From IMG/VR virus record IMGVR_UViG_3300047175_000146, positions 1 through 62,811 of that record: a stretch of 62,811 bases of DNA; one strand, 5' to 3'. Positions 4,018 to 60,231 of this stretch are shown piece by piece. The notes under the pieces were generated by a model, which made no database searches, was not told where the DNA came from, and saw only the letters and a program-made list of their open reading frames with translations. Within the stretch, counting starts at the first letter, position 1; each line of letters begins with the position of its first letter. Made by a program: the position numbers and the translations under genes. This DNA is from a virus.

Positions 4018-4205
4018 CGCGCCTGACCACGCAGCGGCGCAAGGAGCTGCCCCAGGACGAGTTCGCACTGCCGGGCGGTCGATATCCCATTCCCGATGAG
4101 AGCCACGGCCGCGCGGCGCTCTCCATGGCGCATTACGCGAGCCCGGCCGAGCAGGCTCAAATCAAGCGCAAGGTGCACGAGAAATTTCCCGACATCGGAA
4201 AGTGA
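4014..4205 (+). CDS. Small hypothetical protein
   Basis: ATGA start/stop overlap with the upstream gene; 63 aa containing 'LPGGRYPIPDESHGRAALS'. Confidence 0.5.
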   Translation: MTRLTTQRRKELPQDEFALPGGRYPIPDESHGRAALSMAHYASPAEQAQIKRKVHEKFPDIGK

Positions 4206-4214
4206 GGATGAGCC

Positions 4215-4778
4215 GTGCCGATGTACGCAGCGGGCAGGATGGCGAAGGGGCAGTGTCAGCGCTGCGGCCTTTTCTATCTGCTCAAAGAGCTGGTCATGGA
4301 CGGCTACTACCCGAACATTCGGGTCTGCGCCGGCTGCTACGATCCACCCCAGCCGCAGGAACGTCTGGCGGTCGTTTCTGACGCCGTGGCTTTGTACAAG
4401 CCCACGCCGGACGCCATCTACTTGAGCCCACCGGTTCTGACCGCCTCGCAGCAGGGCAACAACATCGTCCTCACCTGGAGCGGTTTCAACCAGATACCGG
4501 CGCCGGCGCAGACGCTCACCGATGATTTCAGCGCGGCCACCCAGGGCAAGAGGCCGATCGGCTCGAGCGGCGGCGCTAACGTCACGGCCGGCTATCTCAT
4601 CAATCGGTCGACCGACGGGGTGAACTTCACGCAGCTCGCCAATCTCGCGAACACGGCGGATGAGTTCGGCGCGCTGGTGGTCGAAACCAACACCTACACC
4701 GACGTCGATCCGGGCATAGGCACCTGGTACTACATGGTGGTCGGCTACGATGCGACCTTCAACGATCCGTATGGCTAG
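4215..4778 (+). CDS. Virion-block protein with N-terminal Cys4 zinc-ribbon-like motif
   Basis: 187-aa ORF with 'CQRCG...CAGC' at the N-terminus and a beta-rich C-terminal half. Overlaps the next gene by 8 nt. Confidence 0.55.
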   Translation: MPMYAAGRMAKGQCQRCGLFYLLKELVMDGYYPNIRVCAGCYDPPQPQERLAVVSDAVALYKPTPDAIYLSPPVLTASQQGNNIVLTWSGFNQIPAPAQTLTDDFSAATQGKRPIGSSGGANVTAGYLINRSTDGVNFTQLANLANTADEFGALVVETNTYTDVDPGIGTWYYMVVGYDATFNDPYG

Positions 4779-6552
4779 CCGCAATTCGAACATCGTGTCG
4801 GTCACCTTCGCGCCGCAAAGCCCGGCCGCGACGCCGACGTTCACGCCCGCAGCAGGCACTTACAACAGCGTGCAAAGCGTGGTGATCGCCTGTGCCACCG
4901 CCGGCGCGACGATTTACTACACCACGGATGGCTCGACTCCGACGACGAGCAGTGCGGTGTATTCGGCGCCGGTGAGTGTCGGGGTCAGCGAAACGCTCAA
5001 AGCGATGGCGACCGCGGCCGGGTATTTGCCATCGGCCGTGGCATCCGCCAACTATGTGATCAATCTTCCGCAGGCCGCGACACCGGCCTTTTCGCCGGGA
5101 ACTGGCACCTACAACAGCGTGCAAAGCGTCACCATCGCGAGCGGCACGGCGGGGGCGAGCATCTATTACACGACCGACGGCTCGACACCAACCACGGGCA
5201 GCACGCTATACAGCGCCCCGGTGTCGGTGGCGAGCAGTGAGACCTTGAAAGCCATTGCCACGGCAAGCGGCTATACGCAATCGAGCGTGGGATCTGCGGC
5301 GTACGTCATCAACCTCCCGCAGGCAGCGACTCCCACCTTTTCACCGGCGGCAGGCACCTACACCGGAACGCAAAACGTCACCATTTTGAGCGCCACCGGC
5401 GGCGCTGTGATCCACTACACCAGCGATGGGTCGACACCGACCACGTCAAGCCCGGTCTATTCCGCGCCGGTGGCGGTTGCCTCGAGCGAGACTCTCAATG
5501 CCATCGCGGTGGCATCCGGTTACACGCAATCCAACGTCGGCAGTGCTTCCTATGTGATCAACCTGCCACAGGCAGCCACCCCAACGTTCTTGCCCGTGGC
5601 CGGCAATTACGCGTCGGCCCAAAGCGTACAGATTCAAAGCGCCACCGCGGGCGCCACGATCTACTACACCACGGACGGCTCAACGCCAACCACCTCAAGC
5701 ACGGTGTATTTCTCTGCCGTCAACGTTGCCGCCAACGAGACCCTGAAGGCCATCGCCACTGCTGCCGGTTACACGCAATCGAACGTCGGCTCCGCCGTTT
5801 ACACCATCGGTCAATGCGATCCGCATTTCGGCAACGTCGAATTGCTGCTGCACTTCGACGGGGCGAATGGCTCGATGACCTTCACAGACTCGTCGCTGAA
5901 TAATTTTTTCGTGACCGGTAATAGCGGCAGCCCGGCAACGTCGCTGGAAACGTCGAACGTGTTGTACGGTACGGCGTCCGCCAATTTTGGAAATGGATCG
6001 TCGTTTCCCACGGAGTCCGCGTTGGGTCCGGCGACAACGGGTACTAATGCTCCTATACCACTCTCCACAGCGACACAGTTGAATCCCGGCACCGGCGACT
6101 TCACGATGGAGTGCTGGATCAACACTAATAATTTCAGCAACAGCCTATTTGGTGTAATCGGTAGCGGCGGAGCTAATGTTCCAGCCGGATTCGGGACTCA
6201 GTTGATTGGGGGGCCGTTGGTTCAGTACTACTGGTACGATGATAGCGGCACTCAACATTATCGAGAGATCGGTGTGCCGGCAGGATCGTGGGCACATGTT
6301 GCGTTTGTTCGTTATTCGGGAAACATTACCTGTTACGTCAACGGCGTTGCCAGTTACTCAGATGCGTATGCGGGCAATTTTAACCTCGCACCTTATTTGA
6401 GCAGTTCTTATGTGGTCGTAGGATGGGCTGAGCAAGGGTTGTACCAATATTCCGGCCTCATGGATGAGTTCCGATACACCGTCGGCGTGGCGCGCTATAC
6501 AGCGAATTTCCCACCTCCGACCACTGCTTTCCCAAACATCGCGTGCAATTGA
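4771..6552 (+). CDS. Fibre/adhesin-like protein: four tandem Fn3_assoc/CHB_HEX_C-type repeats plus a C-terminal LamG (Laminin_G_3-like) domain
   Basis: Repeats read 'P.F.P..GTY....V.I.....GA.IYYTTDGSTPT..S..YS.PV.V...ETLKAIA.A.GY..S.V.SA.Y.I'. The C-terminus has 'GDFTMECWINT', 'WAHVAFVRYSGNITCYVNGV' and 'LMDEFRYTVGVARY', typical of concanavalin/LamG jelly rolls. Confidence 0.7.
   Translation: MASRNSNIVSVTFAPQSPAATPTFTPAAGTYNSVQSVVIACATAGATIYYTTDGSTPTTSSAVYSAPVSVGVSETLKAMATAAGYLPSAVASANYVINLPQAATPAFSPGTGTYNSVQSVTIASGTAGASIYYTTDGSTPTTGSTLYSAPVSVASSETLKAIATASGYTQSSVGSAAYVINLPQAATPTFSPAAGTYTGTQNVTILSATGGAVIHYTSDGSTPTTSSPVYSAPVAVASSETLNAIAVASGYTQSNVGSASYVINLPQAATPTFLPVAGNYASAQSVQIQSATAGATIYYTTDGSTPTTSSTVYFSAVNVAANETLKAIATAAGYTQSNVGSAVYTIGQCDPHFGNVELLLHFDGANGSMTFTDSSLNNFFVTGNSGSPATSLETSNVLYGTASANFGNGSSFPTESALGPATTGTNAPIPLSTATQLNPGTGDFTMECWINTNNFSNSLFGVIGSGGANVPAGFGTQLIGGPLVQYYWYDDSGTQHYREIGVPAGSWAHVAFVRYSGNITCYVNGVASYSDAYAGNFNLAPYLSSSYVVVGWAEQGLYQYSGLMDEFRYTVGVARYTANFPPPTTAFPNIACN
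4816..5812 (+). repeat. Four tandem 249-bp (83-aa) coding repeats
   Basis: Repeat units start at about 4816, 5065, 5314 and 5563 (each begins ..L-P-Q-A-A-T-P..). The period is exactly 249 nt between units 2-3 and 3-4. Confidence 0.85.
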
Positions 6553-14653: not shown

Positions 14654-14670
14654 CTGTCAGCCGCTGACAT
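14654..14670 (+). promoter_or_regulatory. Recurrent 17-nt intergenic element, copy 1 (CTGTCAGCCGCTGACAT), followed by T7 and TACAGT at +23..+28
   Basis: Inverted half-sites TGTCAG/CTGACA, 3-nt spacer, run of 7 T; 61 nt upstream of the 14731 start. Confidence 0.5.
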
Positions 14671-14730
14671 TTTTTTCGAGTTGCCGTTCCTCTACAGTCC
14701 TTCTCGTCCGCGAGCCGTCGTTTCCTCGCG

Positions 14731-15270
14731 ATGTGCAAAAAGGGTCCGGCAATGATCGACTTCATGGTGCTGTCCGCGCCTCGGTCTGCTTCCACGTGGG
14801 CGGCCAATTGGTTGACCACGCACCGGACGCTGTGTTTGCATGACCCGCTGCTTGAGCATACCGTCGAGGAGCTCGACGGCATTCCCCACGCACAGGCGAC
14901 ATTCGGCATTTCCTGCACCGCGTTGCCTTTGTGTCACGCCTGGGTCGATGCACACGCCGCGCGCAAACTCGTTCTACATCGCGATATCGCGGACATCGAT
15001 GCCTCGCTCAAAAGGATCGGCCTGACCGCGCTGTCGCGCCATTGGACGGGCGCGCTCGAACGGCTGCGGGGCATGCACGTGCACTACCTCGATCTGTTCC
15101 AGGCGTCGAGCGCCAAGCGCATCTGGGAATACTTGACCGAAACCGATTTCGATCCGGGTCGCCATCGGCATTTGACGCGCATGCGCGTGACGCCCTATCA
15201 CCCCAAGGTTCCCATCGATGCCGAATGCGCGCGCGATTTCAGGCGACGCATCGAGAGGGCCTTCGCATGA
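14731..15270 (+). CDS. Sulfotransferase-like protein
   Basis: The N-terminal 'FMVLSAPRSASTWAANWL' resembles the 5'-PSB P-loop (PRSGST) of sulfotransferases. 179 aa; an alternative start is at 14752. Confidence 0.5.
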   Translation: MCKKGPAMIDFMVLSAPRSASTWAANWLTTHRTLCLHDPLLEHTVEELDGIPHAQATFGISCTALPLCHAWVDAHAARKLVLHRDIADIDASLKRIGLTALSRHWTGALERLRGMHVHYLDLFQASSAKRIWEYLTETDFDPGRHRHLTRMRVTPYHPKVPIDAECARDFRRRIERAFA

Positions 15271-15933: not shown

Positions 15934-16953
15934 TTGCCGGCAGGATGGGTATCAGCAGGAGTGGCAGCGGTGGGCGTGGCATCGAACATCGCCAGCAACC
16001 AATCGGCGCAATCGGCCGCAAACAAGAACAACGCCAACTCGCAAAATCTCGCCGGCGCGCAGAATCAGATGTTGAGCCAAGCCGAGAGCGTCGCCAACCA
16101 GCCGTTCGTGGCGTACACCGGGCAGCTCACGGCACCGATGTCGGCGAACGAGCAGCAGGGCAACGATTTGGCCGCCAGCGTCGCCAACAACCAGGTGGCG
16201 CAGGGCGATGTGCAGGCGGGCACCAACTTGGTCGGCCAGGTCGCCAACAACGGGTTCAGTCAGCAGACGATTGAAAACTACATGAACCCGTACACGCAGG
16301 ATGTGACCAACAATGCGATCACGGCGGCCAACCGCAGCTACGCCCAAAATCTCTCGGCACTCAATGAAAAATCGGCCCAATCCGACGCGTTCGGCGGTTC
16401 CGGCAGCGCTCTGCAGCGGGGCGAGCTCGCCGGGCAAAATCAATTGAATGTCGCCAACATCACGGCCACCAATGATTCCAACGCCTATGACGCGGCAGTC
16501 AAGGCCTGGCAAGCCGACAATCAAACCAAACTGTCAGCCGCACAGGCCTACAACGCCGCCGGCCAGGACATCACCAACATGAACTCGACGCAGATCTCCG
16601 ATTTGATGAAAACCGGCGGCGTCGCTCAGGCCATCAGCCAGACCAATCTTGCCAATCAGTACGGCCAGTTCATGCGCCAGCAGGGCTGGAGCGCCAATCA
16701 GTTAGGTTCGTTGATTCAAGCGGTCGGTACGGCCAAGGGCAATACCAATGTCGCGGCCGCGCCGCAGTCGAACGTCGCCAACCAACTGCTCGGCTTGGGA
16801 TCGACGGTGGCGGGCTTGTTTGGCGGCTCGAGCGGTACCTCGGATCCGTCGTTGAGCGATGCCGACATGTCGAGCCTATCCAGCAATGCACTGTCGAGCA
16901 CGGCACCGGCCTTGGACTCGAGCACCGTGTCCGGACTCACGTCCACGGTCTGA
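15934..16953 (+). CDS. Internal-virion/ejection-type protein (Gln/Asn/Ala-rich)
   Basis: 339 aa with a hydrophobic N-terminus 'WVSAGVAAVGVASNIA' and Q/N/A-rich low complexity. First of three consecutive genes ending in the giant protein. The TTG start is uncertain. Confidence 0.5.
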   Translation: MPAGWVSAGVAAVGVASNIASNQSAQSAANKNNANSQNLAGAQNQMLSQAESVANQPFVAYTGQLTAPMSANEQQGNDLAASVANNQVAQGDVQAGTNLVGQVANNGFSQQTIENYMNPYTQDVTNNAITAANRSYAQNLSALNEKSAQSDAFGGSGSALQRGELAGQNQLNVANITATNDSNAYDAAVKAWQADNQTKLSAAQAYNAAGQDITNMNSTQISDLMKTGGVAQAISQTNLANQYGQFMRQQGWSANQLGSLIQAVGTAKGNTNVAAAPQSNVANQLLGLGSTVAGLFGGSSGTSDPSLSDADMSSLSSNALSSTAPALDSSTVSGLTSTV

Positions 16954-18370: not shown

Positions 18371-21300
18371 ATGGCCGCCGGCTGGATAGCGCAGGGTCCG
18401 CCTCAACCCGCGGGTCCCGCCAACGATGCGCCCGTGGGCAATGCGCCGCCCGGCAATACAATCGCCGGCGATTGGCAATTGGTGGGTCAGCCCGAGCCCT
18501 TGGATCCCACCGCGATCAAACCGGTCGCCAAGAACGCCATCGAGGACACGCGCTCGATCTACCAGCAGGCGCGGGATTTTGTCTTTGGCCACGATCCAGA
18601 CGCCGATGACACCGATCAGGTGCGAAAGCCGGGCGTGCTGCCCTCTATCGTGGCCGGCGCGCAAGACTTGGATCGCGGCACCAAGGACTTTGCCACCGCC
18701 GGCCCTGATTGGTCGACATTGGCCAAAGCCTACCCGCATATTCTGGCCGCCCAGGCCGAGCGGGTCGGTGCCGGTGTCCAAGAGGCGACGGGTGCGAGCC
18801 AGACCCAAAGCGCCGAGCTGCAAATCGCCGCGCTCAACGTACTGCCGCAGGCCGCGGCGCGCCTGAAATCCCAAGTGCCGGGCCAATCCGGCATCGTGCC
18901 GGTGGAACAACTCGCGCAAGATCCTCTGGTCGAGAAGACCGCCCGGGGTTTGGGGCTCGACCCGGTCGTGTTTGCGTCGCAATGGTCGCAGTACGCCGGC
19001 ATGAGTCCGGAGAAGCAGGCCGATGCCATGGCCGACGCTCAAGCCACATTGGCCGACGGTGCCAAGAACAAAGAGTTGGGCGCCAACTCGCGCTATCAGG
19101 CATGGGCGGACGAGAGGGCGTGGGAACCCTCCGACCTGCTCAATGGCAAGCTCGACCCCTGGACGTTGAAAAGCGTCGCCTTCAACACCGCGACCGCCTT
19201 GCCGGCAGTGGTGGCGACCGCCGGGGCGACTCTGGCCGGTAGCGCGGCGGGCGGCCCTGCCGGCGGTCTGATTGCCGGCGCCACGGTCGGCAGCGCGATT
19301 TTTGGTCCTCAAGGCTACGCCAACGCCAAGGACGCCATAGACGCACAGTCGAGCCGGCTGCTCGAAAAGGCGGATGAGCTTGATGCGGCGGCGCCGATCG
19401 GAAGCCGCCGCGCTTTGAATCCGGCCGCCGCTCTGTTACGCCAACAGGCGGCCGACCTGCAAGCCAGTTCCGACAAGATCGCGATGACCGCCGGCATGCT
19501 GACCGCCGTGGCGTCGGCCGCCGGTGGTGCGCCGCTATCCGCAGTGCTCGCGCGCGCGCCCGGTGGCCAAGCCATCCTCAACCGCATTGTCGGATCAGCC
19601 ATCGCTCAAACCGCCGGCGGCCGCGTGGCCGGCACGGCCATCGCCAACGGCGCCGGCGCCGTGGTGCAGGCCAGCCTGCAAAAGGCGATCGACGTCGGCA
19701 TCGTCCATGAGGATCAGTCGTTGGCCGATGCGCTCAAGGACATCGCCGCCGCAGGCGTCATCGGCGTCACCACCGCGCTTCCCATTGCCGGTGCGCACGA
19801 AATGCTCATTGGCGGCCCACGGGCACAAGCAAAGCGGGACTTCGACACCGAGCAGTTTGCCGCGCAGGCACAACGCATGGCGGCGGGCGGTGCGCTCGGC
19901 GGTGAGCCATCGGCTGCATCGCAGGAAGACTATCCGGGCTACCGCTGGGATCCAAACATCCCCAACGGTACCGATCGCAATGGCAATGCGGTTTACGGCC
20001 GCTTTGTGCCGACCGGGACGAATGGCGCGAACGCTGAGACGACAGCGGCTTTAACTGGACCGCAACAGCCAACCGGTGAGACGAATGCCGATGGCGGTGA
20101 ACCGCTGGGGGGTGCTGGTGGCGGCGGCGCGGCCGGTGCCAGGCAGGCCTATACCGACAAGATGACGGCGCTCAACACGGCCGCCGCCAAGGCTGAAAAG
20201 CGTTCCGACATCACGCTGCAGCCGGAGGAAGAAGGCTGGTCCATCCACGTCAACGGCGAACCGGTGGCCACGTTCGACACGGCCGCCAATGCGCGCGCGG
20301 CGTTGGCGAGTGCCAGAAAACTGGTCGGTACCGCGCCCAAAGTGAACCCGTCGTCGAGCGCATCTGCCGCAACGGCAGAGGCCGATACCGACCAAGGCCA
20401 GTCTGGCGCGCCTCAAGCGCAGACAGAATTCCCACAAAATCCCCCCTCCGAAGACGCCGCCGGCACTAACGCGCCCGCCAAACCCACCGCGGCCGCCCCT
20501 GCGTCGGGCGATGCGAATTTGGACGACCTCGAGCACACGCAGCAGATCGATGTACAGCCCGAGACCGATCGGCGCCAGGACACCGATTTGCGCGCGCGCT
20601 TCGATGCCATGACGCCGGAGCAGAAGTTCGCGGCCGCGTATGCGCACGAGCTGACCGGCATTCCAAACCGGCGCGCGTACGTCGATTCGCCCAAGAAGCC
20701 GGCGCAGGTGTCGATAGACGTCGACTCGCTCAAATGGGTCAACGACAACATGGGGCATCCGTCCGGCGATGCCTACTTAAAGGCGGTCGCCACCGCGCTG
20801 CATCAGGCGTCCGGCGGCAACGCCTATCACATCTCCGGCGATGAGTTCGTGGTGCAAGCCGACAGTCCTGAGCACGCGCAAGCCATCATGGCGGCCGCCA
20901 AGGCTCGCCTCGCCGATGCGACGCTGACTTTCGAGCACCCGGACGGGCGCACCATCACCTTGAAAGGGATAGGAGTCTCGCATGGCACAGGCCAATCTCT
21001 TGAAGAAGCCGATTCCCGGCTCGCTCAAAACAAAGCAGACCGGGAGCAATCCGGCCTCCGCGCAGGTCGCGGCAGCGAACCGCCAGGAACAAGTCGCGGG
21101 TCTGCTCAAGCAGGGTTACCAGCTGAAGAGCGTGGGCCTGCCACCGGCGGCGGACTATCAGGTGGCCGGCAGACCGAAGTCCTAGGCCAGCGCGTCCAAG
21201 CGCCAGCGGTCCCCACCCAGGCACAAGCCGCCGCCGGCAATTACTTCAAACCGACGGTCGAATGGCACGGCCTGCCGATCAAGATCGAAAACGAGCCGGG

Positions 21301-24300
21301 TTCGCAGCGCTCCTTCACCTATCCCAACGGCAATCCGGGGCAACGCACCATGCTCGCCCACTACGGCTATTTTCCCGGCCGTGAAGGCGCTGATGGCGAT
21401 GGCGTCGATGTGTATATCGGGCCTGCCAAGAGCGCGGACAGCGGCAAGGCCTATGTCATCGATCAGTTGCGGCCAGAAGGTGGCGCGTTCGATGAGCACA
21501 AGGTCGTGGTAGGCGTCGGCAGTGCCAAGCAGGCCAAAGAACTCTACCTCAAGCACTACCAGGAAGGTTGGCAGGGGTTCGGCGCGATCACGGCCATGGA
21601 TCACGAGGCCTTGGCCGACTGGCTCGCGCACGGCGATCTAACCCAGCCGGTCGCCTGGAAACCAGTCATCGAGCGTGGCCAGGGGCCCGATGCCCGCTAC
21701 GACTCCATTCTCGAATATCTCGCCCGCCACAAGCGGGGTCTCGACAGCACGGAGGCCGAAGCTCAGGGGATCGATCCGGCCGACATGAAGCTCGCCGCGG
21801 CGCACGTCGGGATACGGCGCGCTTTCCGCAAGGGCGGCATGGGCTTCGATCAGGCTGCTGAACATCTCCATGAGGAAGGGTATCCGGTCACGGATGAGCA
21901 CGGCAACTACTCGCCCAATGTGCTGCTCGAGCGCCTGGCGGACGAGCTCGCCGGCATCAAGCATTTCTCGAGCCATAACCAGACGCACACCGAGGAACTG
22001 GCGCGCGCCGAGCACGAGCGCATCGTCAACGTGCAGGCGGAACTCTCGCAGCGGCAGATCGACCGCTTGAGCGCCGAGCAGATCGAGGCACGCATGGCCG
22101 CGCTCGAAGCGGAGCAGGAGCGGCTTGCGATCCAAGCCGAACGGACCGCAGGCGACGCCGAGGACATGAATTCCATCCCGTTCTCCAAGCGTCAGCGGGA
22201 CCTTTTCGGCGAGCAAAATCACGTCAAGAACGAGATCAAGAAGCTTCAGATCGCCAAAGACAAGAAACGCAACAGCGGCCAGGAATCTCTCGAGACCGGG
22301 CGCCCGGATGACCTGTTCAGCCAGGCACGCCAGCAGATGGACCTGACCGACATCAAGGAGCCACCGACCGAGTACGCGCTCGCCGACAAGGCGAGCAAAA
22401 GGCCGATCAGCAACCAGTTGGATATTTTTGCCCCACGCGCGGTGACGCCGGCGGCCGCGGCGGTCAAGAAATCGGCCGCCATCTTGAGCCAGAAAACCAA
22501 ACTGGTGACGGTCGGCACGTTCCGCTCAGGACACGACAAAATAACCACTTGGCAGCAAGCCGCGCACGTGCTCGCGCCGCTGCGCAAAGGATCGCAGGAA
22601 ACCATGGCGGTTCTGGTCCTCGACAAGAACGGCAAACCGCTGTCGGTGATCCGCGGCGGCATGGGCACGATCAATGGCGCGAGCGTCGAGTACTGGTCAT
22701 TGAGCGGCGCGGTGGCTTCGATCCCAGGCGCTGATTCGGTGTATTTGGTTCACAACCATCCGTCCGGTTCGCTGGTTCAAGGAGAGGCCGACAACACGGC
22801 GACCGCCAAACTGACCGATCTGCTCGATGCCATGGGGCTCAAAACGCACGGCATGATCGTGCTGACGCCGAATGGCGCTAAAGCGTCCTTCGTTCCCTCC
22901 GATCCCAACCTGTTGGGTCACCAAGGTATACCGGGCGAGGTGGCGCCGGGCGGTAAGACGCGCGCGTTGGTGCCGGTTGCCGAACGGCGCTACGCCGCCG
23001 GCAACCGGCAAACAGGGCTGCCAGAAGGGGTGATTGGAACGCAATTGGCCAATCCCCGTGGCACGCGCAAAGTCGTCGAAACCGTCGCGCAGCACACACC
23101 TTCCGGTGTGCTGCTGCTCAACAATCATTATCGCGTCGTGGGTTTGTTGCCGATGGCCGACGCCGCCAAAGCCGCGTTGCGCTTGGGTTCCGATAACACA
23201 GGAGCCTGGGATCTGCTGCGCGCGCTGCACGAAGCCAACGCCAACAACATCATTCCGTATGGTGTTTCCGAAGACGCAGTCAAAAACGTGGTGCGTTTTG
23301 CGCGCGCCGCGGCCCTGAATGCGCCGGATGCCTTCGTCAAAAACGCGACCGGCGCGTGGAACAGCATGCAGGAGTCCGGCTTCGCTCCCGCCGGCGACAC
23401 CTTCAAGCGCACCAAATCGCAGAGCGGCGTCGGCATGCCGGTGGCGGACGTCAAAGCCATCGTCGACAAATTGCTCGGGCATTTTCGCAACAACCCCACC
23501 GATGTGGTGGTGGTGCAAAGCGCCGCGGACCTCGACAAGATCCCTGAGCTCGCCGGGCGCACCGATCCGGACGCGATCGGCCTCTTGGATCCGCGCACCG
23601 GCAAGATCTACCTGGTCGCGGATGAGATGCACAGTCCCGAGCACGTGGCGCTTACCCTGGCGCACGAGTACGTCGTGCACTACGGCCTGCGGGCGCAGTT
23701 TGACGACCGTCAAAACGCCGAGTATCAGGCAATACTTTCCGGAGTATTCAAAGCCATGCCCGCCGAGGTGCGTGCCCGGTTCGAGCAGGCCTTCCCGGGC
23801 CAGGATTTTGCATCCTCGACCTTGAACCAACGGCTGGTGGCGGCGGAGGAAGCGCTGGCTTACGCCGAGGAGCGGTATGCCAACGGCGCGGACATCTCAA
23901 AGCCCGTCCAAGGATTGCTCGAGCGACTGTACACGCTGCTGCGCGATTGGCTGCGCAACAAGTTGGGGTTGGCGCCTAAATTCGACAGCCTGTTCGTCCG
24001 CCGCACGCTCGATGACCTGCGCACGTTTTTGAAGAACTCCCGCAATCGTCCTGAATCGCAGCGCAGTGATGAAGCGCCGGCGGCCGCCAAGCCCCAAGAC
24101 ACGTTCTATTCCGCGCTCGCGCGCGCGGTGGATGCGGCAAAGCGGGACAAAGGCACCGGGCCTGAGTGGGAAGCCACGTTGCGCAACATGACGGGCGTCA
24201 AGGCCGAAGAGATGCAATGGCTGGGATTGAAGGATTGGCTTGCGGGCCGCGGCCGCGTGACCAAGCAGGAAGTTGCCGAGTATGTACACGCTCATCGGGT

Positions 24301-27300
24301 GCAACTGGGTGAAGTGAGGTATGGCGGTAACGACCAGCGCGACGTGTACCTCAACGAGATCCGCTCGCACGGGTTTGATGTCACTGAAGAGTCCGGCGGG
24401 CATCCGAGATTGATTTTTCCGGAAGATTGGGAAGAGGAAGACCCACCGCCGGCCGTCACGCGCGCGTATCACGAACTCGAAGATTTGATGGCGGGCGGCG
24501 ATCCACCGCAGTACCAGGAATGGGCGACGCCGGGCGGGCAGAACTACCGCGAGATGCTCTTTACTTTGCAGAGCAAGCCTTACGGCGTGGATTTGCGCAA
24601 ATCGATCTTCGATAAGTACGAGCCGCGCATCAGACAGATGTACGACAAAGCGATGGACATCTCGCGCACCGACACGCAGGGCGACCTTGATCGTGCCGCC
24701 GCGGCGCGCGAGGTGGATCGTTTGAGAGATGAACGCAATATCGAGGCGGACCGAATCTTCACCGTGCCGGAGCCGTACATTTCGCCGCATTGGGAAGTCG
24801 ACAATGTGGTGGCGCATGCGCGCGCCGATGACCGCTTCGGTCCGCACGGCGAGCGCGTCTATCACATCCACGAGATCCAATCCGATTGGCATCAAGCGGG
24901 TCGAAAGCATGGTTACGTCAGCGGTTTCGATTTAGCCAGACTCAAGGCGGCCTCCGCAGGCGATCCAAGCAACAGGTTGAATCCTAACGCCCCGCCCGAC
25001 GCGCCGTTCAAAACCAGTTGGCCCGAGCTCGCCTTCAAGCACATGCTGCGCGAGGCGGTCGAGCGCGGCTATGACGCCATCTCTTGGGACACCGGTTCGA
25101 CCAACGCCGGGCGCTACAACATGCAGCGGGTGGCAGACAAGATCAGCGTCGCCATCACGCCCAACAAGGAACCGCCGGAATATCACGTGCGCGCCACCAA
25201 GGGTGGCACCGTCGTGCACCAATCCTCTGATTTGAACGAGGAGCAACTGGCGGAACTGTTGGGCAAAGACATGGCGCAAAAGGCGATCAGCCGCTTGGGC
25301 GTCGCCAACGCCGTGTCGACCGATTTTTTGGGCGATGACTTGAAAATCGGCGGCGCGGGCATGCGCGCGTTCTACGACGGCATCCTGCCCAAAAAGGTCA
25401 ACGCGCTGGTCAAGAAGTGGGGTGCGTCGGTCGAAGCGGCCACGCTACCGAGCAAACCGGGGGGTCGCGCGACGATCGAACAGATCGACGGCGGCCATTG
25501 GCGCGTCACCGACCGCGACGGCCGGCATTTCGAATTCGATGATTTCCGCGACGCGCGCGAGTTTCTGGCCGCGGAATCCAAACACAATGCCGCCGGGCCC
25601 GAGGGCGGCCTGCCCGTGCACCTGGTGCGCATCACGCCGGCCATGCGCGATTCGGTGCTCGAAGGTTTGCCGATGTTCAAGAAAAAGGGCAAGGGCAAAG
25701 GTGGTGCGCCGCCGGCCCCTCGAGCTCCTGGACCGATCCGCAAAGGCTATGAAGTCGCTCGCACCGTCGCGAGCTCGATCCCCAACAACGAATTCGTAAT
25801 GGCGTTTCGCCGCATCTTGGCGCCGGCCGGCGTCTCCGAGTTCTCCAGGTCCGCGGCGCTCCTCACGCGCGAGAACTTGGGCGAACTCGCCCAGGCCAAA
25901 ACCCAAGCGCTACACGACCTCGAAAGCTACGCCAAAGCCTTCGACCAGTTGCCCATTCCCGACCGCTATGACTTCATTGACGCCATGGAAACCGGCCAAT
26001 CGCAGCCGCATGCGCCCCTGCAGCGAGCCGCCGACACCATCCGCGGCATGCTCGATGACACGCGCGAGGAGGTGCAGGCTCTCGGCGTCGGGGCGCTCGA
26101 AAACTGGATCGAGAACTACTTCCCGCACATCTGGCAGGATCAAAAGGCGGCATCGAAAGTGTTCCGGCAGATCTTCGGCCGCCGGCCGCTCAAAGGGCCG
26201 GCATCGTTCTTGAAGCAGCGCACCATTCCGACCACGCGCGAGGGTTTGGAGAAGGGACTGCAGCCGATCTCGAGCAACCCTTTGATTCTCGCTTACGCCA
26301 AGATCGTCGAGATGAAGCGTTTCATTGCCGGCGTCAAGCTCATGCAGAAATTCAAGGATGAAGGCCTGGCCGTATTCTTGCCGGCGCACAAGATGATGCC
26401 GGAAGGCTGGGCCGAGATCGAAGATGCGGTTGGCCGGGTGCTGCAATGGAGTGAGGCGGAAGGCGGCTTCGTGATCCGCGGCAAGTACATCATGCCGCAG
26501 GATGCCGCGCGCGTGATCAACAACCACTTGAGCGCATCGGCGCTGGCGAACTTTTTGCCGGCGCAGCTGTTCCGGGTCGCCAGCAACGCCGTCAACGCGC
26601 TGCAGCTTGGCTTCTCAGGGTTTCACTTGGGGTTCACGACCTTGGACGCCATCGTTTCCAAGAACGCGCTCGGCATCGAACGATTGTTGCACGGTGAACC
26701 GGTCAGGGCGGCCGCAACGTTCCTCGAGGCCAACGGCGTGATCACGGGTCCCATCATGAACCTGGCGCGCGGTTACAAACTGCTGAAAGCGTATACCAAC
26801 ATCTCGGGGGCGACGCCGGAAATGCGTCAACTGGTCGAGGCGCTGCAGGCCGGCGGCGGGCGCGTGTCCATGGACATGTCGTTCGCCGCGGCACGTGGGA
26901 TTTCGCCGTTCAAGGGCACCGGTTTTGCAACGCTCGCGGGAGAGGTCAAAGGGGCGCTGACACTGCCGTCGGGACGCATGGCCGAGCTCGGCAAGGTCGT
27001 CGGCGGTTTCCCGCGCGAATATGCGACGCGCCTGTGGCGGGATTTGCAGGCCATGGTCCACGAGATGCAGTGGCCGATCCTGACCGTGCCGCTCGAGATC
27101 GCCGGGCGCATCACGCGCGCATCGACGTCGGTGATCATGGAGCACATCGTGCCGATGCAAAAGCTCGGCGTGTTTTCGGACCTCGCCAGCGACTGGCTGC
27201 GCCGCAACCCGCAAGCCGATCCGGTGGCCATGCACGAGGCCATGCAGCGCATCTGGGATTCGGTCGACAACCGCCTGGGCGAAATGGTCTACGACAACGT

Positions 27301-28396
27301 GTTCTGGAACCGCACCTTCAAGGACGTGGCGCACATGATGGTGCGCGCGGTGGGGTGGAACTTGGGCACCGTCCGCGAGCTCGGGGGCGCGGCCATCGAC
27401 GTCGTCAAACTGCTCGACTACATGGCGCGCGGCGCGCCACCCGAGCCTGCGGGTACAGGCCTCACCAAAACGGCGCAGGCGCGCATGGACTACGAAGCGT
27501 CCAAATCCACCCTGACGCGCATCGCCGAGAAGGCCGGCCATCGCATCACATACACCCTGGCCCTGATCGCCACCACGATGCTGCTCGGCGCCATTGCGAC
27601 CAAGCTCATGAGCGGCCAGGGTCCTCAAGAGATCAAGGATTATTTCTTCCCGTGGACGGGGCGCAAAACCAAGTACGGCACCAAGGAACGCATGTCGATG
27701 CCGACCTACACCAAGGATTTGTATGAGTACGGCACCATGCCTGTGCAAACGCTGATCAACAAGGCCAACCCCATTTTTGGGATCATGCATTCCATTTATG
27801 CCAACGAGGACTTCTACGGCAACCCCATCCGCCATTCGGATGCGGATTTCTGGACCCAGATGAAGGAGGGCGCCTCGTACGCGGCCCGCGAGACGCTGCC
27901 ATTTTCCTACCAGGGCGGCAAGCAGTACTTGAGCGCGCGCAACCAGGAGTTGGGCGATGCGAGCGGCGATCTGAAACGTCAAGTGCTGACCATCGCGCCG
28001 TACGCCGGCTTCGGTCCCGCACCGGCGCGCATCACCTCACCCGACCAGATGGAGCGCTATCAGCAGGAGGAGGAAGAGCGCGGTTGGGTGCGCGGCCTGC
28101 AACGCCAGTACAAGGCGGCGCTCGAGCGCCACGATGAGCCTGAAATAAAGCGCCTGCGGGCCGAGCTCGCCGCGGCCAAGCACAAGGCCAAGCAGACGCA
28201 GGGTGCGATCAAACAGGACCGTTCCAAAGCGCGCGAACAGGCTGACAAAATCGGTGCACTCATCCAAGGCAAATCGCGCGATCAAGCCGTCGCGGCACTC
28301 AAGGACGCCGGCCTGCCGGCTTTTGCGCAATTGTGGAATGCGATGTCCGATAATTTGCGGCCGCGGGTGGCTGAAAGACTAGGAGCCTATGCGTGA
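18371..28396 (+). CDS. Giant (3,341 aa) polyvalent virion/ejection protein
   Basis: Uninterrupted 10,026-nt ORF. Motifs are readable for GGDEF, a pyrophosphatase-like barrel, RadC/JAB (HNHPSG), zincin HExxH, an 'EIQSDWHQ' polyvalent-associated block, and a C-terminal membrane/coiled-coil core. It sits between internal-virion-type genes and the lysis cassette. Confidence 0.85.
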   Translation: MAAGWIAQGPPQPAGPANDAPVGNAPPGNTIAGDWQLVGQPEPLDPTAIKPVAKNAIEDTRSIYQQARDFVFGHDPDADDTDQVRKPGVLPSIVAGAQDLDRGTKDFATAGPDWSTLAKAYPHILAAQAERVGAGVQEATGASQTQSAELQIAALNVLPQAAARLKSQVPGQSGIVPVEQLAQDPLVEKTARGLGLDPVVFASQWSQYAGMSPEKQADAMADAQATLADGAKNKELGANSRYQAWADERAWEPSDLLNGKLDPWTLKSVAFNTATALPAVVATAGATLAGSAAGGPAGGLIAGATVGSAIFGPQGYANAKDAIDAQSSRLLEKADELDAAAPIGSRRALNPAAALLRQQAADLQASSDKIAMTAGMLTAVASAAGGAPLSAVLARAPGGQAILNRIVGSAIAQTAGGRVAGTAIANGAGAVVQASLQKAIDVGIVHEDQSLADALKDIAAAGVIGVTTALPIAGAHEMLIGGPRAQAKRDFDTEQFAAQAQRMAAGGALGGEPSAASQEDYPGYRWDPNIPNGTDRNGNAVYGRFVPTGTNGANAETTAALTGPQQPTGETNADGGEPLGGAGGGGAAGARQAYTDKMTALNTAAAKAEKRSDITLQPEEEGWSIHVNGEPVATFDTAANARAALASARKLVGTAPKVNPSSSASAATAEADTDQGQSGAPQAQTEFPQNPPSEDAAGTNAPAKPTAAAPASGDANLDDLEHTQQIDVQPETDRRQDTDLRARFDAMTPEQKFAAAYAHELTGIPNRRAYVDSPKKPAQVSIDVDSLKWVNDNMGHPSGDAYLKAVATALHQASGGNAYHISGDEFVVQADSPEHAQAIMAAAKARLADATLTFEHPDGRTITLKGIGVSHGTGQSLEEADSRLAQNKADREQSGLRAGRGSEPPGTSRGSAQAGLPAEERGPATGGGLSGGRQTEVLGQRVQAPAVPTQAQAAAGNYFKPTVEWHGLPIKIENEPGSQRSFTYPNGNPGQRTMLAHYGYFPGREGADGDGVDVYIGPAKSADSGKAYVIDQLRPEGGAFDEHKVVVGVGSAKQAKELYLKHYQEGWQGFGAITAMDHEALADWLAHGDLTQPVAWKPVIERGQGPDARYDSILEYLARHKRGLDSTEAEAQGIDPADMKLAAAHVGIRRAFRKGGMGFDQAAEHLHEEGYPVTDEHGNYSPNVLLERLADELAGIKHFSSHNQTHTEELARAEHERIVNVQAELSQRQIDRLSAEQIEARMAALEAEQERLAIQAERTAGDAEDMNSIPFSKRQRDLFGEQNHVKNEIKKLQIAKDKKRNSGQESLETGRPDDLFSQARQQMDLTDIKEPPTEYALADKASKRPISNQLDIFAPRAVTPAAAAVKKSAAILSQKTKLVTVGTFRSGHDKITTWQQAAHVLAPLRKGSQETMAVLVLDKNGKPLSVIRGGMGTINGASVEYWSLSGAVASIPGADSVYLVHNHPSGSLVQGEADNTATAKLTDLLDAMGLKTHGMIVLTPNGAKASFVPSDPNLLGHQGIPGEVAPGGKTRALVPVAERRYAAGNRQTGLPEGVIGTQLANPRGTRKVVETVAQHTPSGVLLLNNHYRVVGLLPMADAAKAALRLGSDNTGAWDLLRALHEANANNIIPYGVSEDAVKNVVRFARAAALNAPDAFVKNATGAWNSMQESGFAPAGDTFKRTKSQSGVGMPVADVKAIVDKLLGHFRNNPTDVVVVQSAADLDKIPELAGRTDPDAIGLLDPRTGKIYLVADEMHSPEHVALTLAHEYVVHYGLRAQFDDRQNAEYQAILSGVFKAMPAEVRARFEQAFPGQDFASSTLNQRLVAAEEALAYAEERYANGADISKPVQGLLERLYTLLRDWLRNKLGLAPKFDSLFVRRTLDDLRTFLKNSRNRPESQRSDEAPAAAKPQDTFYSALARAVDAAKRDKGTGPEWEATLRNMTGVKAEEMQWLGLKDWLAGRGRVTKQEVAEYVHAHRVQLGEVRYGGNDQRDVYLNEIRSHGFDVTEESGGHPRLIFPEDWEEEDPPPAVTRAYHELEDLMAGGDPPQYQEWATPGGQNYREMLFTLQSKPYGVDLRKSIFDKYEPRIRQMYDKAMDISRTDTQGDLDRAAAAREVDRLRDERNIEADRIFTVPEPYISPHWEVDNVVAHARADDRFGPHGERVYHIHEIQSDWHQAGRKHGYVSGFDLARLKAASAGDPSNRLNPNAPPDAPFKTSWPELAFKHMLREAVERGYDAISWDTGSTNAGRYNMQRVADKISVAITPNKEPPEYHVRATKGGTVVHQSSDLNEEQLAELLGKDMAQKAISRLGVANAVSTDFLGDDLKIGGAGMRAFYDGILPKKVNALVKKWGASVEAATLPSKPGGRATIEQIDGGHWRVTDRDGRHFEFDDFRDAREFLAAESKHNAAGPEGGLPVHLVRITPAMRDSVLEGLPMFKKKGKGKGGAPPAPRAPGPIRKGYEVARTVASSIPNNEFVMAFRRILAPAGVSEFSRSAALLTRENLGELAQAKTQALHDLESYAKAFDQLPIPDRYDFIDAMETGQSQPHAPLQRAADTIRGMLDDTREEVQALGVGALENWIENYFPHIWQDQKAASKVFRQIFGRRPLKGPASFLKQRTIPTTREGLEKGLQPISSNPLILAYAKIVEMKRFIAGVKLMQKFKDEGLAVFLPAHKMMPEGWAEIEDAVGRVLQWSEAEGGFVIRGKYIMPQDAARVINNHLSASALANFLPAQLFRVASNAVNALQLGFSGFHLGFTTLDAIVSKNALGIERLLHGEPVRAAATFLEANGVITGPIMNLARGYKLLKAYTNISGATPEMRQLVEALQAGGGRVSMDMSFAAARGISPFKGTGFATLAGEVKGALTLPSGRMAELGKVVGGFPREYATRLWRDLQAMVHEMQWPILTVPLEIAGRITRASTSVIMEHIVPMQKLGVFSDLASDWLRRNPQADPVAMHEAMQRIWDSVDNRLGEMVYDNVFWNRTFKDVAHMMVRAVGWNLGTVRELGGAAIDVVKLLDYMARGAPPEPAGTGLTKTAQARMDYEASKSTLTRIAEKAGHRITYTLALIATTMLLGAIATKLMSGQGPQEIKDYFFPWTGRKTKYGTKERMSMPTYTKDLYEYGTMPVQTLINKANPIFGIMHSIYANEDFYGNPIRHSDADFWTQMKEGASYAARETLPFSYQGGKQYLSARNQELGDASGDLKRQVLTIAPYAGFGPAPARITSPDQMERYQQEEEERGWVRGLQRQYKAALERHDEPEIKRLRAELAAAKHKAKQTQGAIKQDRSKAREQADKIGALIQGKSRDQAVAALKDAGLPAFAQLWNAMSDNLRPRVAERLGAYA
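20630..21060 (+). other. GGDEF (diguanylate-cyclase-type) domain, active-site variant SGDEF, no RxxD I-site
   Basis: The sequence reads 'HELTGIPNRRAY...QVSIDVDSLKWVNDNMGHPSGDAYLKAVATAL...AYHISGDEFVVQ...GIGVSHGTG.SLEEADSRLAQNK'. SGDEF is at 20834..20848. The residues 5-9 upstream are ASGG, not RxxD. Confidence 0.75.
21235..21650 (+). other. Inorganic-pyrophosphatase-like domain (tentative)
   Basis: 'GADGDGVDVYIG' resembles the PPase D-x-D-x-x-D signature, followed by 'FDEHKVVVGV' and 'AKELYLKHY'. Confidence 0.35.
22530..22890 (+). other. RadC-like JAB/MPN domain
   Basis: 'ETMAVLVLDKNGKPLSVIRGGMGTINGASV...VYLVHNHPSGSLVQGEADNTATAKL'. HNHPSG is at 22751..22768. A second, degenerate JAB-like stretch ('VLLLNNHYRVVGLLPM') follows. 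Confidence 0.8.
23560..23760 (+). other. Zincin-like metallopeptidase motif region (HExxH)
   Basis: 'IYLVADEMHSPEHVALTLAHEYVVHYGL'. HEYVVH is at 23663..23680. Confidence 0.5.
24101..25680 (+). other. Large-polyvalent-protein-associated block
   Basis: 'TFYSALARAV...GPEWEATLRNMTGVKAEEMQWLGLKDWL', 'RVYHIHEIQSDWHQAGRKHGY' (24863..24895), 'GGAGMRAFYDGILPKKVNALVKKWG' and 'LPMFKKKGKG' recall blocks seen in giant phage/conjugative-element proteins. This is from memory only. Confidence 0.45.
25740..28396 (+). other. C-terminal ejection-core region with TM helix and coiled coil
   Basis: 'GRRPLKGPASFLKQRTIPT' (26176..26222); hydrophobic helix 'ITYTLALIATTMLLGAIATKLM' (about 27545..27610); charged coiled coil 'ERYQQEEEERGWVRGLQRQYKAALERHDEPEIKRLRAELAAAKHKAKQ'. 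Confidence 0.5.
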
Positions 28397-30453: not shown

Positions 30454-30755
30454 ACGGGTGCCTGCCAGAGCCAGCGGCGGGCCGCCTTGGGGATCCAGAT
30501 GAAGCCGCGCGCCGCGGCCCCATCGGTCGGCCAACCGAATTGCTCGGACAACTCTTCGATCGCCCGGCTCGCATTGTCGCAACACAGGATGTAACGGCGT
30601 TGCCAGGCAGCCGCGCGCCGCTCGTCTAAACGACGGCGGGCGGCGTCGATGTGGGCCAGCGCCAGATTGCCCTCGCGAACGGCCAGTTTCAGCCGCATGG
30701 CCGGGCCGGTATGGCGCAAGGCATGGAACCGTTTGACATCGCCGTCTGCTGACAC
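30450..30755 (-). CDS. Hypothetical protein, lone leftward gene in a rightward block
   Basis: 101 aa with a GTG start and good GC3 bias. Its stop overlaps the stop of 30157..30453 by 4 nt (convergent). Confidence 0.5.
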   Translation of the reverse strand: MSADGDVKRFHALRHTGPAMRLKLAVREGNLALAHIDAARRRLDERRAAAWQRRYILCCDNASRAIEELSEQFGWPTDGAAARGFIWIPKAARRWLWQAPV

Positions 30756-30763
30756 GGCATAAT
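30733..30763 (+). promoter_or_regulatory. Possible sigma70-type promoter (TTGACA-N19-CATAAT)
   Basis: TTGACA at 30733..30738 and CATAAT at 30758..30763. The spacer is long (19 nt). It points into gene 30783/30840. Confidence 0.3.
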
Positions 30764-30839
30764 CCTACACGCTACACTGCCGTTGGACTACAGGCTTAAA
30801 TGGCAAGACCGAGACCCGTCAACAGGAATCGCACCGGTC

Positions 30840-31904: not shown

Positions 31905-32200
31905 TGCGACAAGTCCAAGATCTCCTTTTTATCGAAACCCTCGATTTCAGCCTGCCCTTGACCAAAGGCGAGATGTGCGTCAGAACCGCGCGCGCCATGT
32001 CCGAGGCCGCCCTGCTCGCGTGCCAACTGGTGGGCATCGAACTCGTCGATTACGAATCCGTGCTGTTCGTGCCGCACCGCTATACGCAGGCGCACGCCCA
32101 AGCCGGTGTAAAAGCATTTCAGGATGAGACCCGCGTGCAATTGCGTTCCAAGGCCTGGCGCGAGCGGGTTGAACGCCAAACGGGGACGATGAGCGGCTGA
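31904..32200 (+). CDS. Hypothetical protein
   Basis: In frame with ORF 31850..32200; first ATG at 31904. Confidence 0.45.
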   Translation: MRQVQDLLFIETLDFSLPLTKGEMCVRTARAMSEAALLACQLVGIELVDYESVLFVPHRYTQAHAQAGVKAFQDETRVQLRSKAWRERVERQTGTMSG

Positions 32201-32976
32201 TGGCGACCGCGGCCAAAGGCAAGAAGAAGCGGGCGACCCTCCTTGGGGTGCCGCGCACCGACCGCGATCGCAAATTCTGCGAACGCTGGCTCGTGCATTT
32301 CGATCACAAGCGCGCCTACAAAGAAGCCGGCTTCTCGATGAACCGCGCAGGGCCGGCGGAAGCCGCCAAGAAGCTTGAGCAGTTCACCGAGTATTTGCGC
32401 CCCTTCAAGGAAGCCAAGGCACGCGAGGTCGCCAAGGTGCTGGTGGTCGAGCAGGAGGATGTGCTCAAAGCCATGTCGCGCAAGGCCGTGTTCGATCCGG
32501 GCGATTTCGTCGAGACGTCCGACACTGCGAAGACACAGACCGTCAGCGATCCTGAAACCGGTGAGCTGATCGAGCAACCGGTGGTATGGGAAGGCAAGCC
32601 GATTTTTGCATCGCGCTTGAAACCGTTCGAGAGCCTGACTTCAGAGCAGCGCCAGACGGTGGAGATCGTCGCTGATTCGGGCGGTGAGGTGCGCTACCGG
32701 CTGCCCTCCATCCGCGAACAACATACCCATTTGATTTCCCTGGGTCGCCAATACGGGATGTTCATCGAGAAACTGATCACAGAACGGCATTTGCATCGGC
32801 ACAATCATGCGCACATGCAATTGGACGGGGTGCCCACCGCCAAGCTCGAGGATCTGACGCTCGAGTTGCTGCCGTACGTGGGCGCGGAGTTTGCAACGCA
32901 ATTGGGGTTCACCCAGCAGGACATCGAAGAGGCGCGCCGCGCCACCGATTTGGTAGCCGCCAATGGCAAGTCCTGA
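32200..32976 (+). CDS. terS: Terminase small subunit
   Basis: 'RDRKFCERWLVHFDHKRAYKEAGFS' matches the Terminase_2-type HTH start. Located immediately upstream of terL (one small gene between). Confidence 0.7.
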   Translation: MATAAKGKKKRATLLGVPRTDRDRKFCERWLVHFDHKRAYKEAGFSMNRAGPAEAAKKLEQFTEYLRPFKEAKAREVAKVLVVEQEDVLKAMSRKAVFDPGDFVETSDTAKTQTVSDPETGELIEQPVVWEGKPIFASRLKPFESLTSEQRQTVEIVADSGGEVRYRLPSIREQHTHLISLGRQYGMFIEKLITERHLHRHNHAHMQLDGVPTAKLEDLTLELLPYVGAEFATQLGFTQQDIEEARRATDLVAANGKS

Positions 32977-33232
32977 ACGGCGTTTTCACGCCAAGATCAA
33001 AATCCCGAAGGCGACCGAGCTCGAGGCCAAGGTGAAACTGCGCATCATGGACGTCATCGATGAGGACCTGCGGCGGCGCTTTCGTACCGTGCAAGAGGTG
33101 GCCGATTACCTGCAGGTCGAGGACGGACGCATCTGGAACCTGCGCGCCAAACGGCACCAGAAATTCAGCTTAAGTTGGCTCTTGCGCCTGGCCCAAGCCG
33201 CGCGCGTCAAAATGCGCATCGATATCGTCTGA
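32963..33232 (+). CDS. Small HTH DNA-binding protein (XRE/HTH_37-like)
   Basis: 'QEVADYLQVEDGRIWNLRAKRHQKFSLSWLLRLAQAARVKMRIDI' fits the family pattern ending in ...L..L...L G..v.i.i. Confidence 0.5.
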   Translation: MASPERRFHAKIKIPKATELEAKVKLRIMDVIDEDLRRRFRTVQEVADYLQVEDGRIWNLRAKRHQKFSLSWLLRLAQAARVKMRIDIV

Positions 33233-34907: not shown

Positions 34908-35123
34908 TCCCGGCAGATGGGTGTTCTGGCGGCAATGGGCCACAAGCCTGCCGCGCACGGGAGGGAGCGTCGCAGTGGCCTCATGCCAAACCAAAAATAC
35001 GCCTCCTCCTGCAGATGTTCGGACACATGATCGACGGCGCCGTCGCGCAGCACGCCGACGAGGTTGCCATTGTGTTTCACTTCGAACCGCGCTTGAGCGT
35101 CCATGGGCGCGAAGTGTAACAGT

Positions 35124-35140
35124 CTGTCAGCCGCTGTCAG
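35124..35140 (+). promoter_or_regulatory. Recurrent 17-nt intergenic element, copy 2 (CTGTCAGCCGCTGTCAG)
   Basis: Lies in the non-coding gap after terL, 75 nt upstream of ATG 35215. Confidence 0.45.
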
Positions 35141-35214
35141 CCACGACGCCTGTAAGACGCCACCGCATCGCTGTATCGGACGATGCGTCGTTTGCGGTAA
35201 GGTTGCGCTCGCCC

Positions 35215-36818: not shown

Positions 36819-36848
36819 TTCGCGTTCGCTTCGGTCATCGATTGAGAG

Positions 36849-37445: not shown

Positions 37446-37474
37446 CCGTCAACCATGCACATTCATGTCACCCC

Positions 37475-60228: not shown

Positions 60229-60231
60229 ACC

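Follow-up and report, generated by a model that had tools for sequence, protein, structure and literature searches.

A recurrent 17-bp dyad as the probable operator of late promoters in an uncultured soil phage and its relatives

Four copies of a 17-bp dyad stand in the genome of an uncultured phage from soil, and we consider it fairly probable, judging from the geometry of the sites and their persistence in related phages, that the dyad serves a family of activator-dependent late promoters as their upstream operator. In the mechanism we propose, the dyad would be bound by a dimeric protein, most likely one that the phage itself encodes and expresses from an early or middle promoter of ordinary type; this protein would contact host RNA polymerase (through sigma region 4 and/or the alpha C-terminal domain) and recruit it, which would turn on three operons late in infection (ejection/polyvalent protein at copy 1, portal at copy 3 and capsid at copy 4). 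Binding at copy 2 would instead repress a small gene, x3. The genes that follow dyads 1, 3 and 4 have late functions, i.e., they encode the ejection and polyvalent virion proteins, the portal and the major capsid protein.

The phage genome and the occurrence of the dyad

The window (the whole stretch of DNA analyzed, 62,811 nt) holds a complete genome that was assembled as a circle of ~62.7 kb (about 62,684 bp) with ~62% GC, as indicated by the identity of its first and last 127 bases (1–127 and 62685–62811). A nucleotide search of cultured phages with the window gave no close match, and in protein sequence the portal and terminase reach no more than 30–36% identity to those of Roseobacter phages CRP-901/902, Pelagibacter phage HTVC023P and Caulobacter phage RW, with the major capsid protein 45–48% identical to the annotated capsid proteins of the same phages. 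Genes were called with a codon-usage model and annotated by Pfam and PHROGs; Rfam and tRNA scans of the window were both empty. The late region runs rightward from 48.6 kb through the window end and round to 35.8 kb, and it carries the portal gene (48640–51300, +; TTG start, recognized by tblastn to annotated portal proteins), the major capsid gene (57257–58162, +; recognized by its identity to the annotated capsid proteins), tail and fiber-like proteins (0.5–14 kb), an ejection protein (15970–16953, +; annotated by Pfam/PHROGs), a polyvalent virion protein of 3341 aa (18371–28396, +), terS (32200–32976) and terL (33237–34907), with lysis-like genes between the 3341-aa gene and terS. A divergent early region at ~43.2 kb has a consensus sigma70 promoter and a Cro-like gene.

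Profile domains in the 3341-aa protein are GGDEF-like (residues 777–891), InPase (950–1085) and RadC/JAB (1391–1507), and residues beyond about 1500 gave no matches. An N4-like virion polymerase, an idea prompted by this long ORF, was ruled out, the ORF being that of a polyvalent protein; no profile detected an RNA polymerase in it, and the phage is therefore not N4-like. The stretch at 60000–62811 has a GC content of ~53%, versus 62% genome-wide, and holds a 487-aa ORF (60232–61695) without a Pfam match; this stretch may be a receptor-binding or fiber module of recent acquisition. A minus-strand block (35880–40166) encodes a PAPS-reductase-like protein (35880–36818), a DUF6948 protein and a GH5 cellulase-family protein (38775–40166), and these leftward accessory genes are unusual for a phage.

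An initial annotation of this DNA had described a recurrent 17-nt element in four copies, and pattern search, position weight matrix (PWM) scan and shuffled background agree on that count. The pattern CTGWCAGCSGCTGWCAK matches at 14654, 35124, 48562 and 54823 and at no other place in the window (0 expected); it has 0 matches in 100 dinucleotide shuffles, and no further site appears in the window when three mismatches are allowed. The PWM scan gives the four dyads 25.6–27.6 bits and the next-best site 10.3 bits. Rather than being equally common in coding DNA, the element falls at all four sites in the non-coding DNA that makes up 13% of the genome. The earlier placing of every copy in a gap is borne out by this genome scan with one blemish, in that the ORF before copy 3 ends at 48565, with its stop codon overlapping the dyad. 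A degenerate variant formerly listed at 45111 belongs to another hairpin (TTGTCTG...CAGACAA) and is unrelated to the dyad. An exact 175-bp tandem duplication (48215–48564, with units 48215–48389 and 48390–48564) ends inside copy 3; it repeats the C-terminal part of a DUF6527/BubE-like gene, is present as a single copy in relatives, and is either a recent duplication or an assembly artifact.

The dyad is two-fold symmetric about a base pair, with TGNCA half-sites 10 bp apart, and it can also be read as TGT-N9-ACA and as CTG-N11-CAG/T. Copy 1 (CTGTCAGCCGCTGACAT; 14654–14670, +) is the proposed activator site of the ejection/polyvalent-protein operon, copy 3 (CTGACAGCCGCTGACAG; 48562–48578, +) that of the portal operon and copy 4 (CTGTCAGCGGCTGACAT; 54823–54839, +) that of the capsid operon, while copy 2 (CTGTCAGCCGCTGTCAG; 35124–35140, strand undefined) lies between the leftward gene x3 and the rightward gene x4. 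The element is a near-palindrome, and copies 2 and 3 match on both strands; the common orientation that had been ascribed to all four copies is defined by context alone.

Promoter geometry in the window and in uncultured relatives

After copies 1, 3 and 4, a TAnnnT hexamer sits at +23 to +28, i.e., 22 nt past the dyad, and re-reading the sequence returned the same three boxes that had been listed for it: TACAGT (14693–14698, +), TAATCT (48601–48606, +) and TACATT (54862–54867, +). The first gene after copy 1 starts at 14752, with a transcript start predicted near 14705; the box after copy 3 is followed by GGAG (48631–48634) and then by the TTG start of the portal gene at 48640; and the operon after copy 4 starts at 54898. 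These positions revise the original picture of a near-fixed distance between element and start codon. The start once placed at 14731 moves to 14752, where it aligns with relatives (MIDF...), the distances of 61, 75, 62 and 59 nt are corrected to 81, 74, 61 and 58 nt, and what is constant is instead the 22 nt to the −10 box. Copy 2 has no TAnnnT at +23 and does not fit the late-promoter geometry.

We infer the −10 assignment and the −43 position of these late promoters from sequence: if the −10 box lies at −12 to −7, the 17-bp dyad, which ends 22 nt before it, would span about −51 to −35 and have its center at −43. It would then adjoin the usual location of a −35 box, an arrangement that characterizes class II activator-dependent promoters. 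No TTGACA-like hexamer was found at the canonical spacing, in agreement with the first reading of this DNA; the best match 16–18 nt from the −10 box of the window's late promoters scores just 1–2/6, which is the background level. In contrast to these promoters without a −35 box, the early promoter (TTGACA-18-TAGATT; 43213–43242, +; 10/12 matches) is consensus-like and shows ordinary sigma70-type promoter use by host polymerase. Directly upstream of copy 4, folding reveals a GC-rich hairpin with T runs (54776–54822, +) that is likely the terminator of the portal operon, and such a terminator-like hairpin fits a new transcription unit starting at copy 4. The leader of the ejection operon holds a conserved stem-loop of its own (CGCGAG...CTCGCG; 14706–14731), which in relatives (L046–L049) takes the form CGCGxGGT...ACCxCGCG with one compensatory pair.

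Searches of IMG/VR and JGI metagenomes with TerL, portal and ejection protein brought together contigs of about 15 distinct uncultured relatives, in which TerL is 64–72% and the portal 64–75% identical to the window. These phages carry a variant dyad, nnGNCAG-N3-CTGNCAT, upstream of their orthologues of the ejection, portal and capsid operons. All of the related portal genes examined have an orthologous dyad upstream (TTGCCAGCCGCTGGCAT, CTGCCAGCCGCTGGCAT, GAGCCAACCGCTGACAT and TAGCCAATGGCTGACAT, among others); capsid-operon dyads were located on two contigs (L015 at 17025 and L014 at 17297); and the ejection-operon dyads of four more (L046, L047, L048 and L049) share the geometry of copy 1, with −10 boxes TAGAGT, TAAAGT or TAGTAT at the offset of TACAGT in the window. 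Dyads were also found downstream of terL in relatives.

Searching the window and the relatives for a composite pattern of 3′ half-site plus downstream TAnnnT returned about 20 distinct promoters, all of them on the coding strand and all spaced by 22 nt except for one at 23 nt. When these promoters are aligned, information is concentrated in nnGcCAG-ccG-CTGrCAT (with its peak in G.CAG..GCTG.CAT) and in TA..cTC; there is next to none in the 22-nt spacer or the flanks. Within the dyad, positions 4 and 14 (the half-site centers) vary freely within and between genomes, and the promoter-proximal half-site is almost invariant, with the distal half only weakly conserved in several relatives (e.g., GAGCCAA, TAGCCAA). 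The best TTGACA match 16–18 nt from the −10 box scores 2–3/6 in 18/20 of the promoters, which is the background mode. Two more distant relatives, L006 and L011 (TerL 52–57%), have no dyad: the promoters of L006 are of the ordinary TTGACA kind and come with another operator, and in L011 terL is followed by a TTGACA-type promoter. Caulobacter phage RW (L050) has a dyad-like site, CAGCCAGTGCTTGGCAG, at 5525–5541, 102 nt upstream of its portal gene; there is no −10 box at +23 of this site, so the promoter geometry is absent, and its flanks look tRNA-like, in a region where ARAGORN missed even the annotated tRNA-Val.

Strict spacing, strand bias, location at late operons and the contrast with the early promoter together point to an activator-type reading. 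Activator-dependent late promoters centered near −43 had been suggested at the outset, and the footprint lends this suggestion support, in that the dyad (chiefly its promoter-proximal half), the 22-nt spacing and TAnnnT are kept in ~15 related phages. Four points weigh against it: no homologue of a known late activator (Mor/C, Ogr/Delta, sigma or GerE type) scored above threshold in the window ORFs scanned or among the families listed for 147 early ORFs of relatives, the distal half-site is less conserved than expected for a symmetric dimer, the gene of the leading candidate for the binding protein (32963–33232) belongs to the terminase operon, where a late activator would not usually be encoded, and copy 2 is without the promoter geometry. 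The footprint gives a comparatively validated map of late transcription units in an uncultured soil phage clade whose closest cultured relatives are only about 30–50% identical at the protein level, and the composite of dyad, 22 nt and TAnnnT is usable to annotate late operons in related metagenomic contigs.

Copy 2, candidate binding proteins and rival readings

Within a conserved region of divergent genes, copy 2 overlaps the promoter of x3, a conserved small protein of 68 aa (34898–35104, −; 53 homologues). This sigma70-like leftward promoter (CTGACA-16-TACACT, TG-extended; 35113–35140, −; 9/12 matches) takes a half-site of copy 2 as its −35 box, i.e., the −35 box of x3 is the dyad itself, which is built of two −35-like TGNCA hexamers. 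A protein on copy 2 would sit over both the −35 box and the spacer, and would therefore be expected to repress this promoter. The x3 ATG lies only 8 nt past the −10 box, which implies a near-leaderless mRNA, and the arrangement recurs in L001, L005, L009 and L010. The other neighbor, x4 (35215–35751, +), combines a coiled coil at its N-terminus with a C-terminus rich in beta structure; a TAAGGT box (35198–35203) precedes its ATG by 11 nt, and a GTAGAGT box 9–11 nt before the x4 ATG is conserved in relatives (L001, L002, L005, L009 and L010 compared). Both genes flanking copy 2 thus look leaderless or nearly so. An additional dyad separates terS from an inserted gene in two relatives (L003 at 870, L004 at 1415), again without a canonical −10 box. 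This occurrence of the dyad apart from a −10 box suggests an independent, free-standing binding module that is joined to a −10 box at the main late promoters, rather than half of a bipartite sigma site.

Which protein might read the dyad is a separate matter. One possibility, which we hold tentatively, is a late activator from a family not yet linked to late transcription, either an XRE-type HTH protein or the near-leaderless x3 (45–70 aa), such that one and the same site would recruit polymerase at the late operons and shut off the divergent antisense promoter beside terL. The leading candidate is an 89-aa XRE-type HTH protein encoded between terS and terL (32963–33232, +), which matches Pfam HTH_37, the PHROG “HTH DNA binding protein” and, in a profile comparison, PDB 2a6c (E = 1.6e-4). 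It is conserved in all close relatives, it is the only recognizable sequence-specific DNA binder throughout the dyad-bearing clade, and a sigma70-like promoter at 30749 stands upstream of its gene. By analogy with lambda, an XRE-type dimer would be well matched to a 17-bp operator whose symmetry axis runs through a base pair. On these grounds we rank the protein first among the candidates for binding the dyad, as an assignment likelier to fail than to hold. The region upstream of the terS/HTH/terL operon (30733–30778) contains overlapping sigma70-like promoters, TTGACA-19-CATAAT (seen by eye) and CTGACA-18-TACACT (from the scan), and it shares the CTGACA and TACACT hexamers with the leftward promoter at copy 2. 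As for x3, its AF2 model is moderate (mean pLDDT 69) and consists of three strands and a helix, with a conserved core that is not basic; compared against the PDB, it gave no fold match.

A 70-aa HTH protein (41324–41536, −) is a weaker candidate. Its similarity to Mor is sub-threshold (Pfam PF08765, E = 0.016, 15.6 bits versus a 24.9-bit cutoff), it matches phrog_836, “late transcriptional activator”, with E = 7e-4, and it has no orthologue in relatives R1 and R2, whose early regions are almost fully covered. More broadly, no Mor/C, Ogr/Delta, sigma or GerE-type regulator scored above threshold among the window ORFs scanned (most of the ORFs), and the 25 families listed from a Pfam scan of 147 early ORFs of relatives include none of the Mor, sigma or GerE type. 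Comparing dyad variants with candidate proteins for co-variation was uninformative, given that positions 4 and 14 vary freely within single genomes.

The most widely conserved early small protein is a zinc-knuckle protein of 72 aa (C-x4-C-x10-C-x2-H; 44875–45093). A first homologue search with it was empty; a profile search found 32 homologues, all hypothetical proteins, and its AF2 model has a mean pLDDT of 91, with no Pfam match and no PDB match by sequence or fold. It was considered as an Ogr-like activator and then demoted, as its family also occurs in a more distant phage with an Ogr-like protein of its own. It is probably tied to the adjacent gene for an SSB-like protein with a C-terminal DFDDPIPF tip, with which it forms a pair (44151–45093) that is syntenic in all relatives examined. 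Profile searches of the PDB with two further conserved early proteins, g43 and g39, gave no matches. CsrA homologues occur in 3 of the 147 early ORFs of relatives, and the more distant L040 encodes an Ogr_Delta/NrdR-like zinc-ribbon protein of 104 aa (loci 2456–2641 and 4042–4356 were noted), with no dyad at that locus; late regulators therefore differ across the wider phage group.

Turning to what the dyad itself might be, other than an activator site, we consider it unlikely that it is a repressor operator (for a lysogeny or timing repressor, or as a “stoperator”-type roadblock) whose clearance lets the late promoters fire without an activator. Copy 2 would suit this reading, since an operator over the −35 box and spacer of a sigma70-like promoter is in the classic repressor position; so would the dyads of L003 and L004 that have no −10 box at +23; and operators in many copies across phage genomes are known from the CIRs of phiC31 and the stoperators of L5. 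At the late promoters, however, the dyad lies upstream of the core, clear of the −10 box and start site, and promoters without a −35 box would be weak unaided. The exact 22-nt spacing in about 20 promoters is typical of protein–protein contact and not of occlusion, and the profile scans that were run found no integrase or CI-like repressor, only the Cro-like protein and small HTH proteins.

It is distinctly improbable that the dyad, or its 3′ half CTGNCAT, forms a bipartite promoter with TAnnnT across a long spacer, read by a phage-encoded or modified sigma-like factor. The decay of the distal half-site beside an almost invariant proximal one would be expected under such a scheme, and TGNCA resembles the TTGACA −35 box, in which capacity a half-site serves at copy 2. 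Yet no sigma70-family factor is known to span a 23-nt gap between hexamers; neither the window ORFs scanned nor the families listed for 147 early ORFs of relatives include a sigma-like domain; and the dyad occurs, as noted above, without any −10 box.

We likewise hold it very improbable that a host transcription factor (e.g., a LuxR-type quorum-sensing regulator) binds the dyad and couples late expression to host physiology. The form CTG-N11-CAG/T at a class II position is compatible with this, and the variant CTGCCAGCCGCTGGCAT of L012 presumably resembles las/lux-type boxes; furthermore, no phage activator of a known family was found, and the central base of the half-site varies freely within and between phages, with no sign of phage-specific drift in specificity. 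On the other side of the ledger, the element exceeds lux-type boxes by one base pair and, unlike CRP/FNR-type sites, is symmetric about a base pair, and structural genes under a host factor would be unusual. As for the host, a contig scan with the portal gave no match, and a TerL profile scan of contigs matched only short MAG contigs, the nearest GTDB matches being short contigs in Gammaproteobacteria MAGs. Likenesses to LexA, Pho-box, CRP/CooA, KorB and sigma54 sites we take to fail on spacing or symmetry. The LexA box is CTGT-N8-ACAG, versus N9 in this dyad, and the Pho box, an 11-bp repeat, is separated from the −10 box by 10 bp.

Least probable of all is a role as a nucleic-acid hairpin, whether in weak intrinsic termination, in RNA processing or as the single-stranded promoter of a virion RNA polymerase. 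A 6-bp stem closed by a 3-nt loop, with T-rich sequence after it, is possible at copies 1 and 4, and a terminator scan picks up copy 4. However, the four copies fold no better than dinucleotide shuffles (z = −0.30, +0.19, +0.28 and −0.07), copies 2 and 3 are mismatched at the center and lack a T run, and the 5′ arm is degenerate in L014, L016 and L019, where no hairpin forms and the 3′ half-site, spacing and −10 box are kept. The initial annotation had offered both terminator and virion-polymerase promoter as alternatives; the former loses its footing with stability at the shuffle level and stems lost in relatives, the latter with the 3341-aa protein, in which only InPase, RadC and GGDEF-like domains and no polymerase are detectable.

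Comparison with known regulatory systems

The systems nearest in form to a hairpin element share little with the window sites. N4-type phages have a giant virion RNA polymerase and a conserved hairpin (5–7 bp stem, 3-nt loop) at early genes, and neither feature was found here, where the sites precede late genes; nor do the four copies show the features of Rho-independent terminators (a stable GC-rich stem and a U run, conserved at the ends of operons), with z about 0, no T run after copies 2 and 3 and the stem lost in three relatives.

Lux/las boxes and CRP/FNR class II sites are dyads centered at −41.5 to −42.5 that replace the −35 box and take the form CTG...CAG. Their symmetry is of even length (CTG-N10-CAG; 5-6-5), versus the 17-bp dyad of the window, and no LuxR/GerE or CRP-family protein was detected in the phage. 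In P2/P4, the small zinc-finger phage proteins Ogr/Delta activate four late operons, whose weak promoters are each preceded by a conserved dyad. In P2 this dyad is TGT-N12-ACA near −55, versus TGT-N9-ACA at about −43 in the window phage, and, unlike in P2, no Ogr_Delta match was obtained among the window ORFs scanned, the one such match being in the distant relative L040.

In lambda, cI at OR2 activates PRM from a 17-bp pseudo-symmetric operator near −42, where a class II dimer of the XRE/cI type touches the −35 region, and the same type of operator represses the divergent promoter, with a leaderless mRNA for the divergent gene. The window phage resembles this system in its 17-bp operator, in the proposed activation position, in the putative divergent repression and in the near-leaderless divergent gene. 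It differs in having single sites and not a tripartite operator, in that these head structural-gene operons and not a repressor gene, and in that no cI-like protein with a dimerization domain was identified.

The promoters controlled by Mor and C in phage Mu have a −10 box, no −35 box and a 16-bp imperfect dyad centered at −43.5 that overlaps the −35 region (PMC4390567, PMC2582627), and the contacts between activator and polymerase have been described in a 2025 preprint (bioRxiv 10.1101/2025.05.02.651988). The late promoters proposed here are like the middle and late promoters of Mu (Pm; Plys, PI, PP and Pmom) in having a −10 box with no −35 box—a combination present at three of the four window copies and at about 20 promoters overall—in the dyad, whose center would, from the predicted transcript starts, lie at about −43, and in that several copies of the dyad head late operons, which in Mu are served by the host sigma70 polymerase (PMC4390567, PMC2582627; 10.1101/2025.05.02.651988). 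They are unlike Mu in that no protein of the Mor/C family (PF08765) scores above threshold, with 41324–41536 a sub-threshold match, and in that the dyad is 17 bp long, symmetric about a base pair and made of TGNCA half-sites unrelated in sequence to the Mu sites. The regulatory logic is thus known (class II activation of promoters without a −35 box is textbook material) and the cis-element is new. The finding extends known biology rather than changing it, and the dyad could serve as bait for its cognate regulator, for which the leading candidate stands outside the Mor/C, Ogr/Delta and sigma families.
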